In this document: piece after piece, positions 3,416 through 31,777 of the stretch
Numbering within the stretch: position 1 is the first letter of the stretch
How the letters are laid out: every line of letters begins with the position of its first letter
From: Vicinamibacterales bacterium
GTDB lineage: Bacteria; Acidobacteriota; Vicinamibacteria; Vicinamibacterales; UBA8438
Assembly: GCA_965262925.1 (NCBI GenBank)
Contig: CBDHGC010000004.1
Span: 6,481,112 to 6,545,111 of the forward strand
Direction: 5' to 3'
Length of the DNA: 64,000 nt
The notes under the pieces: generated by a model
Told to the model about the DNA's origin: nothing
Database searches by the model: none
The model's input: only the letters and a program-made list of their open reading frames with translations
Made by a program: the position numbers and the translations under genes

Positions 3416-4573
3416 CCTCATATTTCGGCATACTGTGAGGTCAGGATACTTATTTCCAGCTTAATAACCGATGCGCTCGCCAGCCGCACCCAGCAACGAC
3501 AGAACGGCGATCGCCAACGCGCTGATCAACAACAGACGGTCCCGCCGGTCCGGGCGCGAAACATGCATCGACGAGAGTCCCATCCCGAAGCGCATGTCCT
3601 TGATGTCCCGAAAGCCCGCCTCAATCCCCCAGCGCTTGCCGTAGTACCGAATCAGGACCCGCGTCGGGACTGTCGCTTCGCTGGCCACCAGGCACCACGG
3701 TTCGTCCATCTTCGGATCCTGTACGCACACGACCACGCCGACCGGCAGCTCGTACGCGTCGGTCACCCGAGCACCCACCAACCGCCGCGCACGCCCCTTG
3801 TCGCCGACCCACGCGGCGGCCGCTCGCCGCTCGCCGCGCGCATTCGTCACATAGATGTCTCCACGCAGCCGAATCACGTATTCGAAGGCCAGCTCCGTCG
3901 TCAACGCGTAGAACAGCTTGCAATCCGCAAAGCCCCGGTCCGCCACGACGGTGACTTTCACCCCGGCCGGCAGCACCTCCCGCAACCGGCACAGCACCTC
4001 GTACTCATAGCGCCGCTGATTACCCTTCAGCGTCGAGGACGCCACCGTCTTCCACAGCAGGGGCGTCGCGCGCCCATGGCCAGTCACCATCGACAGCACG
4101 ATCGTGTCCTGCCCGTCGGCCGCAAAGCTGGTCCAATCCAGCGCAACGATCACCTCCGTGCGGGCGCCGACGATGAACGGCGTCCAGTATGCGAAAAAGG
4201 TCCAGACGTCGACGCCTCGATTGCTCAGGAGCCGATCCACCTGCTTCACACCATGCTTGGTCAACGTACCCAGGGCCTGGGCCAAGCCGCGGCCCACTGC
4301 ATGGATTGCCAGCGAAGCGCTCGTCAGCACGCCCAGGGTGGCGTTGGCCAACGACAGCACCCGTTTGGCATGCAGGTCGCCTTCATACAAGGTGGCGATG
4401 AAGTTCAGGAGGTCGTGTCTCCGGAGCGATTGCCCGGATGAGGCCGGCAGATCTTGATGTAGATGCATGCAATATTATTCTAATTCAAAGTGCGCCACCT
4501 TGCAAACTTTTCTAATGCGAGATGTCTGTTCAAGAAGGGTTTCTTCTTATTGATTTCATATGGCAAAATGAGG
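3416..4573 (-). mobile_element. IS4-family insertion sequence (approximate ends)
   Basis: AT-rich flanks contrast with the GC-rich surroundings. Imperfect terminal inverted repeat: CCTCATATTTCGGCATA (3416-3432) versus the reverse complement of CATATGGCAAAATGAGG (4557-4573). Encloses one DDE transposase gene. No clear target duplication seen. Confidence 0.55.
3461..4468 (-). CDS. IS4-family DDE transposase
   Basis: DDE signature VALDWTSF ... VVADRGF ... YGKRWGIEAGFRDIKD, matching the IS4 Y-x2-R-x3-E-x6-K motif. 335 aa. Confidence 0.85.
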   Translation of the reverse strand: MHLHQDLPASSGQSLRRHDLLNFIATLYEGDLHAKRVLSLANATLGVLTSASLAIHAVGRGLAQALGTLTKHGVKQVDRLLSNRGVDVWTFFAYWTPFIVGARTEVIVALDWTSFAADGQDTIVLSMVTGHGRATPLLWKTVASSTLKGNQRRYEYEVLCRLREVLPAGVKVTVVADRGFADCKLFYALTTELAFEYVIRLRGDIYVTNARGERRAAAAWVGDKGRARRLVGARVTDAYELPVGVVVCVQDPKMDEPWCLVASEATVPTRVLIRYYGKRWGIEAGFRDIKDMRFGMGLSSMHVSRPDRRDRLLLISALAIAVLSLLGAAGERIGY

Positions 4574-9898: not shown

Positions 9899-9991
9899 TG
9901 GCGGAGAGAGTGGGATTCGAACCCACGGTAGGAGGATTACCCCTACACACGCTTTCCAAGCGTGCACCTTCAACCTCTCGGACATCTCTCC
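9899..9991 (-). tRNA. tRNA-Ser (anticodon GGA), CCA encoded
   Basis: GGAGAGATGTCCGAGAGGTTGAAGGTGCACGCTTGGAAAGCGTGTGTAGGGGTAATCCTCCTACCGTGGGTTCGAATCCCACTCTCTCCGCCA. 7-bp acceptor stem, anticodon loop TTGGAAA, long variable arm, T-loop TTCGAAT. Confidence 0.92.
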
Positions 9992-12801: not shown

Positions 12802-12892
12802 TGGCGGAGAGGGTGGGATTCGAACCCACGTGCCGGTTTCCCGACAAGACGCTTTCGAGGCGCCCCCGTTACGACCACTTCGGTACCTCTCC
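12802..12892 (-). tRNA. tRNA-Ser (anticodon CGA), CCA encoded
   Basis: GGAGAGGTACCGAAGTGGTCGTAACGGGGGCGCCTCGAAAGCGTCTTGTCGGGAAACCGGCACGTGGGTTCGAATCCCACCCTCTCCGCCA. Anticodon loop CTCGAAA, long variable arm. Confidence 0.9.
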
Positions 12893-20122: not shown

Positions 20123-20199
20123 TGGCGCGCCCTGCAGGATTCGAACCTGCGGCCTCCTGGTTCGTAGCCAGACGCTCTATCCAGCTGAGCTAAGGGCGC
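20123..20199 (-). tRNA. tRNA-Arg (anticodon ACG), CCA encoded
   Basis: GCGCCCTTAGCTCAGCTGGATAGAGCGTCTGGCTACGAACCAGGAGGCCGCAGGTTCGAATCCTGCAGGGCGCGCCA. Anticodon loop CTACGAA. Confidence 0.92.
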
Positions 20200-28344: not shown

Positions 28345-29556
28345 ATGCGTCCCTTCCGGGAGACGATCCCGATCGTCGAGGCGCTGCGCATCGTCCACGA
28401 CGCGGCCCGGCCGCTGGACCGCACCGCGCGGGTCGGGCTGGCCGCGGCAAACGGCAGGGTGCTCGCCGCCGGCATCGTTGCGGACCGCGACGTGCCGCCG
28501 TTCGACCGCGCGGCGATGGACGGCTACGCGGTGGTGGCGGCCGACACGTCCGGCGCAAGCCGGGAGGAACCCGCGCGGCTCCGTTGCGTCGCCACGCTCC
28601 ATACCGGCGAGGTCGCGACCCGCGCCGTCGGCCGCGGGGAATGCATCCAGATCGCGACCGGGGCGCCGCTTCCCGACGGCGCCGACGCCGTGGTGATGGT
28701 CGAGCAGACCGACCGCCGCGGCGACGCGGTCGACGTGTTCACCGCGGTCCACGCGCGCCAACACATCGGCCGGCGGGGCGCCGACATCGCGGCCGGCCAG
28801 ACCGTGCTCCACTCCGGCGACGTGCTGACCCCGAGCCGCGTCGGCTCGATCGCCGCCCTCGGCATCCCGGAGGTAGAGGTCTACGATCGGCCGCGGATCG
28901 GCATCGTCTCCACCGGCGACGAGATCGTCGAGCCCGGGCAGCCGCTCGCACCGGGCCAGATCTACGACATCAACCGCTTCACCCTGGGTGCGGTCATCGC
29001 CGAGCACGGCGGGGTCGCCGCCGCACATCCCATCACCGGGGATTCCCTCGCGGCGCTCGGCGCCGCGGTCGACGCCATCATCGCGCAGGGAACGGATGTC
29101 CTCGTCTTCTCGGGCGGCAGCTCCGTCGGCGAGCGCGACCTGACCCGCGACGTCCTCCGCCAGAAGGGGAACGTGGCGTTCCACGGCATCGCGGTCAAGC
29201 CGGGCAAACCGACGGCGTTCGGCCACATCGGATCGACGCCCGTGCTCGGCATGCCGGGCTATCCGACTTCGTGCCTGTCGAACGCCTACCTGCTGCTCGT
29301 CCCGCTGCTCCGACGCATGGCGCACCTGCCCCCGCTCCGGACGCGGACGGTCACGGTGCCGGCCGGGCACCGCTTCGTCTCGGTCGGCAATCGACACCAG
29401 TTCTACACGGTGCGTGTGGTCGACGGCGCCGCCGTCGGCGCTTTCAAGGCCTCGGGCGACATCACCAGCATGTCGCAGGCCGATGGGTACATCGAGATCC
29501 CGATGGGGGTCGACGCGGTGGAGGAAGGCGAGCGGGTCCACGTCACGCTGTTCTGA
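28345..29556 (+). CDS. moeA: Molybdopterin molybdenumtransferase
   Basis: PPFDRAAMDGYAV, TGAPLP, VLVFSGGSSVGERD, GMPGYPTS motifs. An alternative GTG start at 28303 overlaps the moaB stop. Confidence 0.88.
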   Translation: MRPFRETIPIVEALRIVHDAARPLDRTARVGLAAANGRVLAAGIVADRDVPPFDRAAMDGYAVVAADTSGASREEPARLRCVATLHTGEVATRAVGRGECIQIATGAPLPDGADAVVMVEQTDRRGDAVDVFTAVHARQHIGRRGADIAAGQTVLHSGDVLTPSRVGSIAALGIPEVEVYDRPRIGIVSTGDEIVEPGQPLAPGQIYDINRFTLGAVIAEHGGVAAAHPITGDSLAALGAAVDAIIAQGTDVLVFSGGSSVGERDLTRDVLRQKGNVAFHGIAVKPGKPTAFGHIGSTPVLGMPGYPTSCLSNAYLLLVPLLRRMAHLPPLRTRTVTVPAGHRFVSVGNRHQFYTVRVVDGAAVGAFKASGDITSMSQADGYIEIPMGVDAVEEGERVHVTLF

Positions 29557-29558
29557 GC

Positions 29559-30137
29559 TCAGTCCACCTCATCGACGACGAAGGACTGCGCCATGTCGAT
29601 CTGAAACAACGGAACCGTAAGAGGCGGGAATTCCAGACGGGCCAGCGACGAGTGCACGAACTCTCGCCAGTATCCCCAAACGTGAAACGGGCAGTAGTGC
29701 AGCGCAAACGTCTTCAACTGCTCATCGCTAAAGTCCGGCGAACCATCCTTGAGCGCGTACGAGGCTTCCAGCGTCGCCTTGACGACGACGCATGGCTCGC
29801 TTTCGTCCCGCTGCTCCGAAGAGGGTGCCGGGGCATCCAGTCGAAACACCAAGGTGCTCGTCGCCTTGAACCCGGCGTTCTTCCCGTCGCCGGCCGAATC
29901 GACGCTTGGCGTGCGGAAGTTGGTTGATGCCCGCAGACGCGCGTCAATATCGACTTCCTCTATTGCCATCCGTGCGTGCGCCGAGAACCCAGAGAATCGG
30001 ACGCGTTCCAGGCGGGTATGAGTCACAACCTCGTTCGCCGCCTGGATCGGGGTCGGTTTGCGCTTCGACGCGCGAGCGGGCGCCGACCCCGTCTTCGGTC
30101 TGCCGTTGGTCGCTGAACCTGGGGTCTTCCTTGCCAT
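29559..30137 (-). CDS. SecB-like chaperone (TA-associated)
   Basis: C-terminal half aligns with E. coli SecB: LKTFALHYCPFHVWGYWREFVHSSLARLEFPPLTVPLFQID versus [41 protein letters not shown]. ATG 30137 overlaps the antitoxin stop (TGATG). Confidence 0.75.
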   Translation of the reverse strand: MARKTPGSATNGRPKTGSAPARASKRKPTPIQAANEVVTHTRLERVRFSGFSAHARMAIEEVDIDARLRASTNFRTPSVDSAGDGKNAGFKATSTLVFRLDAPAPSSEQRDESEPCVVVKATLEASYALKDGSPDFSDEQLKTFALHYCPFHVWGYWREFVHSSLARLEFPPLTVPLFQIDMAQSFVVDEVD

Positions 30138-30697
30138 CACGCTGCCAGGGGACTCTCCTGGGTGACCACTGAGTCGCTCCAAGAATCAGAACCGCGGCCC
30201 AACGAACTGACCGCCACACGTCGAGTCGCGTGGCCGAAGGCATCCAACTCGAACACTGAACGCGCGAGCGCATCGCGCGTCATGGCAACACGCGCCAGAC
30301 GCGCACGCAACTCACTGACCGCTCTTTCCGCATACTGAAGGTCCGCCCGCAGTCGAACCAGACGGTCCAACGCCTCCGTCTGAATCTCTCCCCGCCGCCA
30401 GCGCTTGAGCGTTGCGATGCCGACGGAAACGTAGCCGGCGAACTCCGGCCACTTCATGTCCAACTTGCGGCGCAGGCTCTCGATCTCGTCAATCGTCAGC
30501 AAGCCGACCTTTCGGCGGTACGCGTCGGAAACCGCCCGGTGGTAAGCCCGAACATGCTTCCCAAGAATTACGACTTCACCGCAGTTCGCACACTGTGGTG
30601 CGTTCAACTCCACTGAAACGTGCTCGCCCTTCAGTTCCGCTTCAACAGTTCTGGGCGCTTCCGGTTCAACATCGTGCCCACACGCTATGCACTTCAT
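30137..30697 (-). CDS. MqsA-family antitoxin (Zn-ribbon + HTH) with ~65-aa C-terminal extension
   Basis: MKCIACGH...QCANCGE zinc ribbon. HTH LDMKWPEFAGYVSVGIATLKRWRRGE. 186 aa versus ~131 aa for E. coli MqsA. Confidence 0.8.
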   Translation of the reverse strand: MKCIACGHDVEPEAPRTVEAELKGEHVSVELNAPQCANCGEVVILGKHVRAYHRAVSDAYRRKVGLLTIDEIESLRRKLDMKWPEFAGYVSVGIATLKRWRRGEIQTEALDRLVRLRADLQYAERAVSELRARLARVAMTRDALARSVFELDAFGHATRRVAVSSLGRGSDSWSDSVVTQESPLAA

Positions 30698-30718
30698 CCT
30701 GCATACCCCAGCGAGAGT

Positions 30719-31102
30719 CTAGAAGTCTACGTTCTTGGTGGATTCATGAAAGCTCACGATGATCAGCCGCTCGTTGAACAGCGAGAACTTCAGGTACATC
30801 CTGCGCCCGACGTGCGCAGAGAACCACGCGGCCTCGTACAGATCGTGTCCCTCGCACAGACCGTCGTACCCTGGATCGTCTCGGGCGTGGAGATCCTGAA
30901 CCGTGATCTCATTGAGACACTCCCGGAGGGCAACGGTGATGGTCGGCTCGCCGCGGATGCCGATCTCGTCGCAGTGTTGACGAAGACGGTCGTAGTGGGC
31001 CCGCGACGCCTGCCAGCCATCCCCGCGTCGGATACACGAACGGGCCGCCTCGAGTACCGCACCAAGGTCGCCTCGGCCATCGGGCCTGGACTCGTCCGCC
31101 AT
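30719..31102 (-). CDS. MqsR-family toxin
   Basis: C-terminus YLKFSLFNERLIIVSFHES matches MqsR YLKITVIHDVLIVSFKEK. The middle block CDEIGIRGEPTITVALRECL matches ADELGLDFDGMCNVIIGL. Confidence 0.75.
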   Translation of the reverse strand: MADESRPDGRGDLGAVLEAARSCIRRGDGWQASRAHYDRLRQHCDEIGIRGEPTITVALRECLNEITVQDLHARDDPGYDGLCEGHDLYEAAWFSAHVGRRMYLKFSLFNERLIIVSFHESTKNVDF

Positions 31103-31165
31103 GGAGACAACGCAAGCCTAGTCGACAACTGGACCCTCAGGACCGTCCCCGGCCCGAAGCCCCAT

Positions 31166-31181
31166 GGTATCAATCGATACC
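31166..31181. promoter_or_regulatory. Palindrome GGTATC-AATC-GATACC upstream of mqsR (candidate operator)
   Basis: Lies 64-79 nt upstream of the toxin start. The half-site GGTATCAAT recurs at 31240-31248. Confidence 0.25.
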
Positions 31182-31312
31182 CCTCGGGTCAAGCCAGACC
31201 GCCGCCGGCTGCTCCGGCGGGGGGCACCACGAAGTCCGTGGTATCAATTGGCGTCTCCAAGGCCCACATCGGCGAGCGGCGCGTGGTTGAAACCGGCCGG
31301 AGTAGAGCAAGG

Positions 31313-31777
31313 TTACCGCTTGCCCATCCGCCGCGCCCACTCCAGCTCGAGTTCGTCCGCCGTGTGGAGGTCGAAGACGTCCCCGCTCCGCCGCTGGTCG
31401 CCGCGGAACTCGGTATGGCAGCGGTAGCACACCTCGAGGTCGGGCAGTCGGCCGTAGACGATGAGGTCGAGCAGCGCGGCGCCGCCGAGCACGCCGTAGG
31501 CGACCAGGTCCATCTGGTACCAGTAGAAGCCGGCGCTGATGAGCGCGCCGGTGATGATCACGGCCAGGCCGAGCTTCGGGTCGAAGTCCTTCCGGACGTA
31601 GACTTCGCCGCCCTCGCAGACCGGACAGACATCGACCTCCTCGCCGGCGCGGACCTTGTCGCTCACCGCGAGCGAGATCGCGCGGTCGCACCCGCCGCAC
31701 AGGACGGCGGTCGGCGCTTCGGCCGCGGCGATCGGCAGGCGGCTCGCGCACTCAGGGCAGATGATGGTCAGATTCAT
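31313..31777 (-). CDS. Membrane protein with four CxxC pairs (double zinc ribbon flanking two TM helices)
   Basis: CPEC...CGGC...CPVC...[two hydrophobic helices]...CYRC. The start overlaps the stop of the upstream gene. Confidence 0.6.
   Translation of the reverse strand: MNLTIICPECASRLPIAAAEAPTAVLCGGCDRAISLAVSDKVRAGEEVDVCPVCEGGEVYVRKDFDPKLGLAVIITGALISAGFYWYQMDLVAYGVLGGAALLDLIVYGRLPDLEVCYRCHTEFRGDQRRSGDVFDLHTADELELEWARRMGKR

Follow-up and report, generated by a model that had tools for sequence, protein, structure and literature searches.

A stretch of 64,000 nucleotides (nt) from a Vicinamibacterales genome (contig CBDHGC010000004.1; this whole stretch is called the window below) carries three close-packed minus-strand genes that a preliminary description, made from the sequence alone, had read as an intact toxin-antitoxin-chaperone (TAC) module, in which an MqsR-like toxin is joined by an MqsA-like antitoxin of extended length and by a chaperone resembling SecB. 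Is this locus such a system, or is it better described as the home of a different kind of toxin, as a decaying remnant, or as an export SecB that happens to stand beside an ordinary two-gene MqsRA pair? Our analysis argues that it is very probably a functional, horizontally acquired TAC operon of the MqsRAC type. The core of the earlier reading stands, the antitoxin scoring above curated family cutoffs and the other two proteins being recognized by their folds.

Architecture and identity of the three gene products

The three open reading frames (ORFs) span 29559-31102, are all intact and encode a toxin of 127 amino acids (aa), an antitoxin of 186 aa and a chaperone of 192 aa; the positions and the peptide strings given for them in the preliminary description proved correct. 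According to the ORF coordinates, the toxin and antitoxin genes are spaced by 21 nt and the antitoxin and chaperone genes overlap by 1 nt. The overlap, which had also been pointed out, can be read directly in the window as TGATG, in which the chaperone ATG (30137-30135) and the antitoxin stop TGA (30139-30137) have one base in common, and an overlap or near-overlap at this junction is kept across related loci. The toxin ORF lies directly upstream of the MqsA-family antitoxin, and the same toxin-first order is found in related and distant loci. A type II toxin, an antitoxin and a SecB-like chaperone are adjacent and co-oriented here, with a single promoter-like site upstream, which is the arrangement by which a TAC is recognized.

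The antitoxin exceeds the curated cutoffs of both TIGR03830 (74.9 bits; cutoff 61.8) and PF15731 (38.5 bits; cutoff 30), the matches being confined to residues 1-118. When a 35-sequence antitoxin profile was aligned to E. coli MqsA with hhalign, residues 1-125 corresponded to MqsA residues 1-129 (E 3.4e-6), so that both domains were covered; the E. coli MqsA sequence used for this alignment was checked against 2KZ8/3GN5, with one difference, outside the segment discussed. The zinc-ribbon cysteines C3, C6, C36 and C39 (CxxC...CxxC) are invariant in the 35 sequences and are followed by the helix-turn-helix (HTH) domain, which bears out the zinc-ribbon/HTH, MqsA-like assignment made earlier. Asn97 and Arg101 are given as the base-reading residues of E. 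coli MqsA in a passage of PMC5422877 that cites Brown et al. By the hhalign alignment, which has 21% identity, Arg101 corresponds to an invariant Arg99 and Asn97 to an invariant Ala95; the latter replacement, as far as a mapping at 21% identity can be followed, fits the changed operator sequence described below.

For the chaperone, the best sequence match in the PDB is the TAC chaperone Rv1957 of M. tuberculosis, both with the single protein (phmmer, E 1.2e-4) and with a 33-sequence chaperone profile (E 3.8e-5, residues 37-170). In the AlphaFold2 model (predicted local distance difference test score, pLDDT, 79.6), aa 1-24 are disordered and a short helix (aa 30-39) precedes the first SecB strand. 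A fold search with this model placed the four Rv1957 chains of 5MTW first (E 3.5e-10, TM-score up to 0.83 on target), with the canonical SecBs of E. coli and H. influenzae behind them (E about 2e-7). The third gene product is SecB-like, as had been proposed, and a TAC chaperone is its best match by sequence and by fold. The basic N-terminal extension reported for it is also present, although shorter than the ~40 aa stated, comprising about 29 variable residues and then the helix at 30-39. Throughout the clade this N-terminal region (aa 1-29, 30051-30137) is always present, basic, Pro/Thr/Ala-rich and variable in sequence, and a short helix with the conserved sequence TPxxxANxVV comes after it; the SecB of the A. 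baumannii plasmid described below lacks the N-terminal region.

The toxin, whose C-terminus reads ...MYLKFSLFNERLIIVSFHESTKNVDF, gave an AlphaFold2 model (pLDDT 79.4, predicted TM-score 0.74) for which chains B and D of the MqsR structure 3HI2 were the only significant fold matches (E<0.001), with E values of 3-4e-4 and a probability of 1.0. The TM-score was 0.69-0.72 on target and the root-mean-square deviation 2.6-3.0 over ~101 columns, and the next matches, RelE, YafQ and HigB1, had E>0.09. The MqsR-like assignment is upheld by this fold search, and the protein is indeed about 30 aa longer than MqsR, exceeding the 98-aa E. coli protein by 29 aa. A still longer, N-terminally extended toxin is ruled out by an in-frame TAG in the window and by the lack of an in-frame start in relatives.

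Several observations speak against this reading. Hidden Markov model (HMM) searches, which the preliminary description had suggested as a check and as a possible refutation, recovered the antitoxin, as given above, and neither of its partners: the toxin reached 12.3 bits against the cutoff of 26.2 for Pfam MqsR_toxin (PF15723; E 0.24, C-terminal 25 residues only), and the chaperone stayed below threshold with Pfam SecB (17.2 bits against 26) and likewise with NCBIfam SecB. None of 94 toxin-family members, reaching down to ~20% identity, matches PF15723 at E<=0.01, and PDB sequence searches with two toxin family profiles, one of them wide, retrieved no structure, MqsR 3HI2 included. With hhalign, the alignment to E. 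coli MqsR (a sequence identical to 3HI2_B) was limited to toxin residues 85-120 and MqsR residues 63-97, that is, the C-terminal hairpin in the last 35 residues (E 0.0044, probability 7.8%). A sequence bridge from the toxin to MqsR was therefore either absent or confined to the C-terminal hairpin in all four attempts (Pfam, the two profiles against the PDB, the 94-member scan and hhalign), and the fold search alone connects the two. The equivalent of the essential Lys56 of MqsR was not located, the sequence alignments not reaching that region. No PADLOC model matched any of the three proteins, and a defence-island context is ruled out by the housekeeping neighbours. Finally, the ratio of nonsynonymous to synonymous substitution rates (dN/dS, omega) between the window and its nearest relative, L006 (related loci are cited by such numbers), is ~1 for the toxin and the antitoxin domain, a value that reflects only about 10 substitutions. 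The claim for the toxin and the chaperone nevertheless stands, on fold-level evidence and not on the HMMs.

The same results can be explained in another way, namely that the toxin is not an MqsR-type enzyme but comes from a distinct branch of the RelE/BECR superfamily, dedicated to TACs, with other chemistry (a Glu65/His119 pair plus Tyr103/Lys105) and possibly another RNA target. 'MqsR-like' would then refer to the fold and the partner antitoxin only. Besides the failure of all 94 family members to reach Pfam MqsR_toxin and of the wide profile to find 3HI2, this explanation draws on the near-invariant residues of the wide toxin family (E65, W93, S95, Y103, K105, F106 and H119), on the hairpin alignment, in which His119 stands where MqsR has Lys96, and on the YLKF...SLH ending that the toxin has in common with the putative toxin of an A. 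baumannii plasmid TAC. It also agrees with the literature, according to which Lys56 and Tyr81 are essential for MqsR and the canonical Glu/His pair is absent from it (PMC9636575). On the other hand, MqsR is far ahead of RelE, YafQ and HigB (E>0.09) as a fold match (probability 1.0, TM-score ~0.7 on target), Tyr103, which aligns with Tyr81, hardly varies across the wide family, the YLK motif is conserved as well, and the partner antitoxin is a bona fide MqsA. We regard a separate branch as unlikely but a real possibility, and it would refine the MqsRAC reading without contradicting it. The toxin is MqsR-like in fold and in its partner antitoxin, yet its sequence family falls outside the Pfam MqsR model. 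More doubtful is a proposal in which the toxin would represent an undescribed TAC-dedicated MqsR/RelE branch (115 clusters), with Glu65/His119 supplementing or replacing Lys56/Tyr81 and possibly with another cleavage specificity, and in which the N-terminus of the chaperone and a conserved block in the 5' untranslated region (5'-UTR) would be extra regulatory or sensing elements new to TACs.

Operator, antitoxin tail and selection in related loci

Homologue clusters for the three proteins numbered 49, 64 and 65. Thirteen genome loci were recovered, all from metagenome-assembled genomes (MAGs) of Vicinamibacterales (Acidobacteriota), and 16 closely related loci were examined, 13 of which have the toxin-antitoxin-chaperone order with overlapping or near-overlapping junctions. 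Overall, this order recurs in about 20 loci, some of them very distant. An exhaustive profile search of 1.84 billion proteins gave only 115 toxin clusters at 50% identity. Three loci with distant toxins were sampled. In L019, where the toxin is 33% identical, an extended MqsA antitoxin comes next and then a gene for a SecB-like protein, which the chaperone profile matches at E 3e-20. L020 and L021 (28% toxin identity) likewise have an extended MqsA antitoxin after the toxin, with an Ala-Ala end; the third ORF of L021 is unmatched by the chaperone profile and no third ORF is called in L020.

A comparable gene order was seen on the 8.4-kb A. baumannii plasmid pA52-3 (L022, NZ_CP034095.1 2828-4447), where a 'hypothetical protein' of 166 aa, an MqsA-family antitoxin of 198 aa and a 'preprotein translocase subunit SecB' are annotated. 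The last of these matches our chaperone profile (E 2e-16), and the putative toxin ends YLKFAL...SLHDD, with the YLKF...SLH motif of the window toxin; despite this common ending, the toxin HMM does not detect it. The pA52-3 locus looks like a TAC in which the toxin is unannotated and the chaperone is mis-named as an export factor. A tblastn search for plasmid relatives of the window toxin gave none. Similar SecB matches occur on other Acinetobacter, Vibrio and Shewanella plasmids.

The region 29300-31500 holds a single sigma-70-like site, TTGACC-17-TACCAT (31192 to 31164), whose -10 box is preceded by a TG, and a palindrome that had been proposed as a candidate operator fills the promoter spacer and overlaps the -10 box. 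Comparison with relatives strengthens that proposal. The 64-kb window has a single copy of the palindrome, at 31166-31181 (chance expectation 0), and all 16 related loci have one, -70 to -82 from the toxin start. When 14 upstream regions were aligned, the TTGAC of the -35 box and nearly the whole palindrome were invariant while the surroundings had diverged. The motif, GGTATC(A/G)ATTGATACC, had been read as a 6-4-6 arrangement; a 16-bp inverted repeat of two 8-bp halves, GGTATCGA and TTGATACC, fits better. The window copy has one central mismatch, and many relatives have the perfect 16-mer GGTATCAATTGATACC. The operator is unlike that of E. coli MqsA, as had been remarked. Its position is the one expected for autorepression by an antitoxin dimer, and we take it to be the presumed binding site of the MqsA-family protein.

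The 9-mer ATTGATACC occurs exactly twice in the 64 kb (31166-31174 and 31240-31248) against 0.06 copies expected. The half-site repeat noted in the preliminary description is thus present, yet it is a feature of the closest relatives only, the upstream copy being kept in L006, degenerate in L007 and absent from more distant loci. A hairpin, ACCACG-GACTT-CGTGGT (31226-31242, minus strand), overlaps this upstream copy; it has no T-run and lies ~70 bp past the stop of the upstream gene. In another relative, L002 (3977-4510), the public toxin gene call (169-177 aa) starts too far upstream and spans a TTGACA -35 box and the operator GTATCAATTGATAC. Because the promoter and the operator lie inside it, this long call is a mis-call, and an in-frame GTG at 4112 fits the start of the toxin family.

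Between the promoter and the toxin gene, most loci have kept the DNA sequence of a 5'-UTR block (31121-31146 in the window). An in-frame TAG in the window copy and the lack of an in-frame start codon in relatives show that this block is non-coding. RNA structure in this conserved block was considered and rejected (RNAalifold -2.8 kcal/mol, no covariation). In relatives the block reads ...GAGGATCCAGGTGTCGACCAC, and GGTGTCGA within it equals the left half of the operator with one mismatch. At the other end of the operon, an intrinsic terminator was looked for 3' of the chaperone gene and none was found; the stop codons of the chaperone gene and the convergent moeA are 2 bp apart.

The end of E. 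coli MqsA falls at about residue 127 of the window antitoxin, and since the MqsA alignment stops at residue ~125-127, the remaining ~59 aa (aa ~128-186) form a true extension, somewhat shorter than the ~65 residues that the preliminary description had assigned to it. Past a conserved helix, ADxxFLExAxxELxxRL, family members differ in how long the tail is and in its sequence. A basic-then-aromatic segment is present in most tails (mostly RRRPxLEW; ARSVFELDAF in the clade of the window), and Ala-Ala is the C-terminal end in 30 of the 35 antitoxin family members, the window antitoxin ending ...SPLAA and distant antitoxins ending ...ASAA and ...FAFAA. In characterised systems, the chaperone-addiction (ChAD) tails of TAC antitoxins have a ClpX degron at their end, Val-Ala in HigA1 of M. 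tuberculosis and Ala-Ala in CmdA, and Asp-Asp in place of the degron at the ChAD end abolishes chaperone dependence (10.1101/2024.02.24.581848; PMC8165232).

Two related loci have lost the tail and the chaperone together. In L013 (3404-4064) the chaperone gene is gone and a frameshift in the antitoxin sits exactly where the tail begins, the former tail being legible in another frame. In L018 (3388-3897) there is no chaperone, and the tail is unrelated or replaced and lacks the Ala-Ala end. The toxin ORFs of both loci are full length and uninterrupted. These natural variants agree with a link between tail, degron and chaperone, and such co-loss backs the chaperone-addiction model from comparative genomics alone. 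A third locus, L012 (3394-4521), has a frame change inside the tail that fuses antitoxin and chaperone into a single 375-aa ORF, and this fusion may be real or may be an indel error in a long-read MAG.

Pairwise dN/dS values show that the toxin, the antitoxin domain and the chaperone core are under purifying selection (omega 0.08-0.31). In the deeper pairwise comparisons omega was 0.15-0.31 for the toxin and 0.08-0.26 for the antitoxin domain; constraint on the antitoxin tail (0.30-0.96) was weaker than on the antitoxin domain, and the chaperone gave 0.19-0.26 in its core and 0.40-0.79 in its N-terminus. The omega between the window and L006 is uninformative because there are very few substitutions. 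A decaying or inactive remnant, with a catalytically dead toxin or a silent operon, would account for the omega of ~1 of the toxin and antitoxin domain in this closest pair, for the decayed relatives L013 and L018 and possibly the frameshift fusion in L012, and for the missing terminator. However, none of the three ORFs is interrupted and their starts and junctions are conserved, omega is 0.08-0.31 in every deeper comparison, the promoter and the operator are intact and conserved, as are the putative active-site residues, and the one deviating omega comes from about 10 substitutions only, making a remnant very unlikely. We therefore retain the reading of the module as a functional MqsRAC-type operon, the features of which are collected in Table 1.

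Table 1. Coordinates of the module and its regulatory elements in the window
Feature	Position	Strand	Description
Toxin	30719-31102	-	127 aa, MqsR-like fold (RelE/BECR superfamily), presumed mRNA endoribonuclease
Antitoxin, whole ORF	30137-30697	-	186 aa
Antitoxin MqsA-family core, aa 1-127	30317-30697	-	Zinc-ribbon with four invariant Cys, and HTH
Antitoxin C-terminal extension, aa ~128-186	30140-30316	-	ChAD-like tail ending ...PLAA-COOH, a putative ClpX-type degron
SecB-like TAC chaperone	29559-30137	-	192 aa: variable basic N-terminus (aa 1-29), helix (30-39), SecB core
-35-like box TTGACC	31187-31192	-	Part of the sole sigma-70-like site in 29300-31500
Presumed operator GGTATCGATTGATACC	31166-31181		16-bp palindrome within the promoter spacer, overlaps the -10 box
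-10-like box TACCAT	31164-31169	-	TACCGT in most relatives
Second operator half-site ATTGATACC	31240-31248	-	74 bp upstream of the first copy
Conserved 5'-UTR block GGTCCTGAGGGTCCAGTTGTCGAC	31121-31146	-	DNA-level conservation in most loci

Genomic setting of the module

The module has a GC content of 0.56-0.65, compared with 0.70-0.75 in its flanks, and its neighbours are housekeeping genes (GH3, MoaB/MogA, MoeA, Fe/Mn superoxide dismutase and NadA). The flanks are common only to L006 and L007, the other copies lying elsewhere; in L006, the closest locus, the flanking genes have 89-97% amino-acid identity to those of the window. In L002, IS110, Tn3 and rve transposase genes stand immediately upstream of the copy. 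Among 80 metagenomic loci carrying the zinc-ribbon membrane gene that lies upstream of the module, none contains the TAC, and in 53 of them moeA is convergent, with a median gap of 44 bp (39 loci <=100 bp) versus 1756 bp in the window. The module is a ~1.7-kb insertion, because the empty sites in relatives have a short gap and no TAC, and it is a small mobile unit inserted between two housekeeping genes. A search for target-site duplications gave no direct repeat of >=7 bp between the two insertion junctions.

The setting also bears on the least probable explanation: that the third gene is a housekeeping protein-export SecB with no part in antitoxin control, standing beside an ordinary two-gene MqsRA, would suit its weak, sub-threshold Pfam and NCBIfam SecB matches and the significance of canonical SecB structures in the fold search, but is highly improbable given that its start codon overlaps the antitoxin stop, that it accompanies the toxin-antitoxin pair into genomic surroundings that are otherwise unrelated, is missing at the empty site and is lost together with the antitoxin tail, and that Rv1957, and not the export SecBs, is best by sequence and fold.

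The upstream gene (31313-31777, minus strand) encodes 154 aa with two CxxC pairs and a hydrophobic segment, has no Pfam match, and is widely conserved (>200 metagenomic relatives), nearly always convergent with moeA. The site between the two genes carries other small inserts in some metagenomic relatives, namely a 211-aa ORF plus a 75-aa membrane ORF in L083 (4160-5235) and a 134-aa ORF in L090 (515-1120), and it may be a recurrent landing spot. Elsewhere in the window, the minus strand contains a match to the Rfam group II catalytic intron D1-D4 region (RF02003; 967-1110, 84 bits, E 6e-17) and tRNA genes for Ser-GGA (9899-9991), Ser-CGA (12802-12892) and Arg-ACG (20123-20199).

Proposed mechanism and comparison with known systems

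We propose that one promoter, TTGACC-N17-TACCAT, would drive the toxin, the antitoxin and the chaperone, the last two being translationally coupled through TGATG. The N-terminal domain of the antitoxin would neutralise the MqsR-fold ribonuclease toxin, and an antitoxin dimer would bind the 16-bp palindrome GGTATCGATTGATACC over the -10 box and repress the operon. The ~59-aa tail, with a predicted ClpX-type Ala-Ala degron at its end and its basic and aromatic segments, would destabilise the antitoxin, and the SecB-like chaperone would bind the tail and so protect the antitoxin. If unfolded clients or a phage protein were to titrate the chaperone, the antitoxin would be degraded, the toxin freed and translation shut down. 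Toxicity, RNase activity, chaperone addiction, ClpXP dependence, operator binding and the trigger would all be expected here by analogy with characterised TACs.

Such systems are better known than the preliminary description allowed. It had called MqsRA-based TACs rare and little characterised, which is overstated, as MqsA is one of the two main antitoxin families accompanying SecB-like chaperones and two systems have been tested (PMC5105189, PMC9519451). The MqsRA-TAC of V. cholerae RC385 (Vcho-TAC) is functional and chaperone-dependent, and its ChAD is transferable (Bordes et al. 2016, PMC5105189); the mechanism of ChADs and SecB-controlled toxin-antitoxin pairs has been described (PMC5105189, PMC6377645). 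The MqsRAC of E. coli C496_10 gives protection against phage T2 (Vassallo et al. 2022, PMC9519451), and a phage protein that titrates the chaperone is an established trigger for other TACs (10.1101/2024.02.24.581848). The module described here opens no new mechanism; its class is already known, and the window copy is a well-preserved example. With it, the range of chaperone-controlled MqsRA systems grows to include soil and marine Acidobacteriota, and three clean features become available: an invariant 16-bp operator, a family-wide Ala-Ala end (a putative degron) on an otherwise fast-evolving tail, and the natural variants that have lost tail and chaperone together. Standard annotation resources miss the toxin and the chaperone of the window's clade, and for this reason TACs of this type are probably under-counted.

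The module has every architecture-level feature of MqsRAC-type TACs. Like Vcho-TAC and the MqsRAC of E. coli C496_10, with which it was compared by their descriptions, it is a toxin-antitoxin-chaperone operon with the chaperone gene last, an extended MqsA-family zinc-ribbon/HTH antitoxin and a toxin longer than the 98-aa E. coli MqsR. Unlike them, it sits in an acidobacterial (Vicinamibacterales) chromosome among housekeeping genes, its toxin family is missed by Pfam, NCBIfam and PADLOC, its chaperone has the clade-specific basic N-terminus of ~29 aa, and its operator is different. Compared with E. coli MqsR/MqsA (3HI2, 3GN5, 3O9X), the toxin-first order, the four-Cys zinc-ribbon and HTH of MqsA, the MqsR fold, the Tyr81 equivalent and the YLK...SF motif are all found here, together with a promoter palindrome for autorepression, which in the window is a prediction. 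The E. coli system has neither a chaperone nor a tail, whereas the window toxin has 29 additional aa and His119 in place of Lys96, its antitoxin, going by the alignment at 21% identity, has Ala95 in place of Asn97 with Arg101 kept as Arg99, and its operator motif is GGTATCAATTGATACC instead of ACCT-N-AGGT.

The chaperone side of the module is closer to other TACs. In the M. tuberculosis HigB1-HigA1-SecB^TA system (Rv1955-57; 5MTW), Rv1957 is the best match of our chaperone, although the two are only 19% identical over the fold alignment, and the antitoxin likewise has a ChAD-type tail with a terminal aliphatic ClpX degron, Val-Ala in HigA1 and, as predicted from the sequence, Ala-Ala here. The toxin-antitoxin pair is HigBA there and of the MqsRA type here, and the two ChADs have no sequence relationship, which is usual for such segments. 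The phage-defence system CmdTAC (PD-T4-9) has a toxin of another kind, an mRNA ADP-ribosyltransferase, and an antitoxin with no relation to MqsA, but a SecB-like chaperone, the likely sensor, and an antitoxin ending in an Ala-Ala ClpX degron (10.1101/2024.02.24.581848) are features to which the chaperone and the putative degron of the present module correspond.

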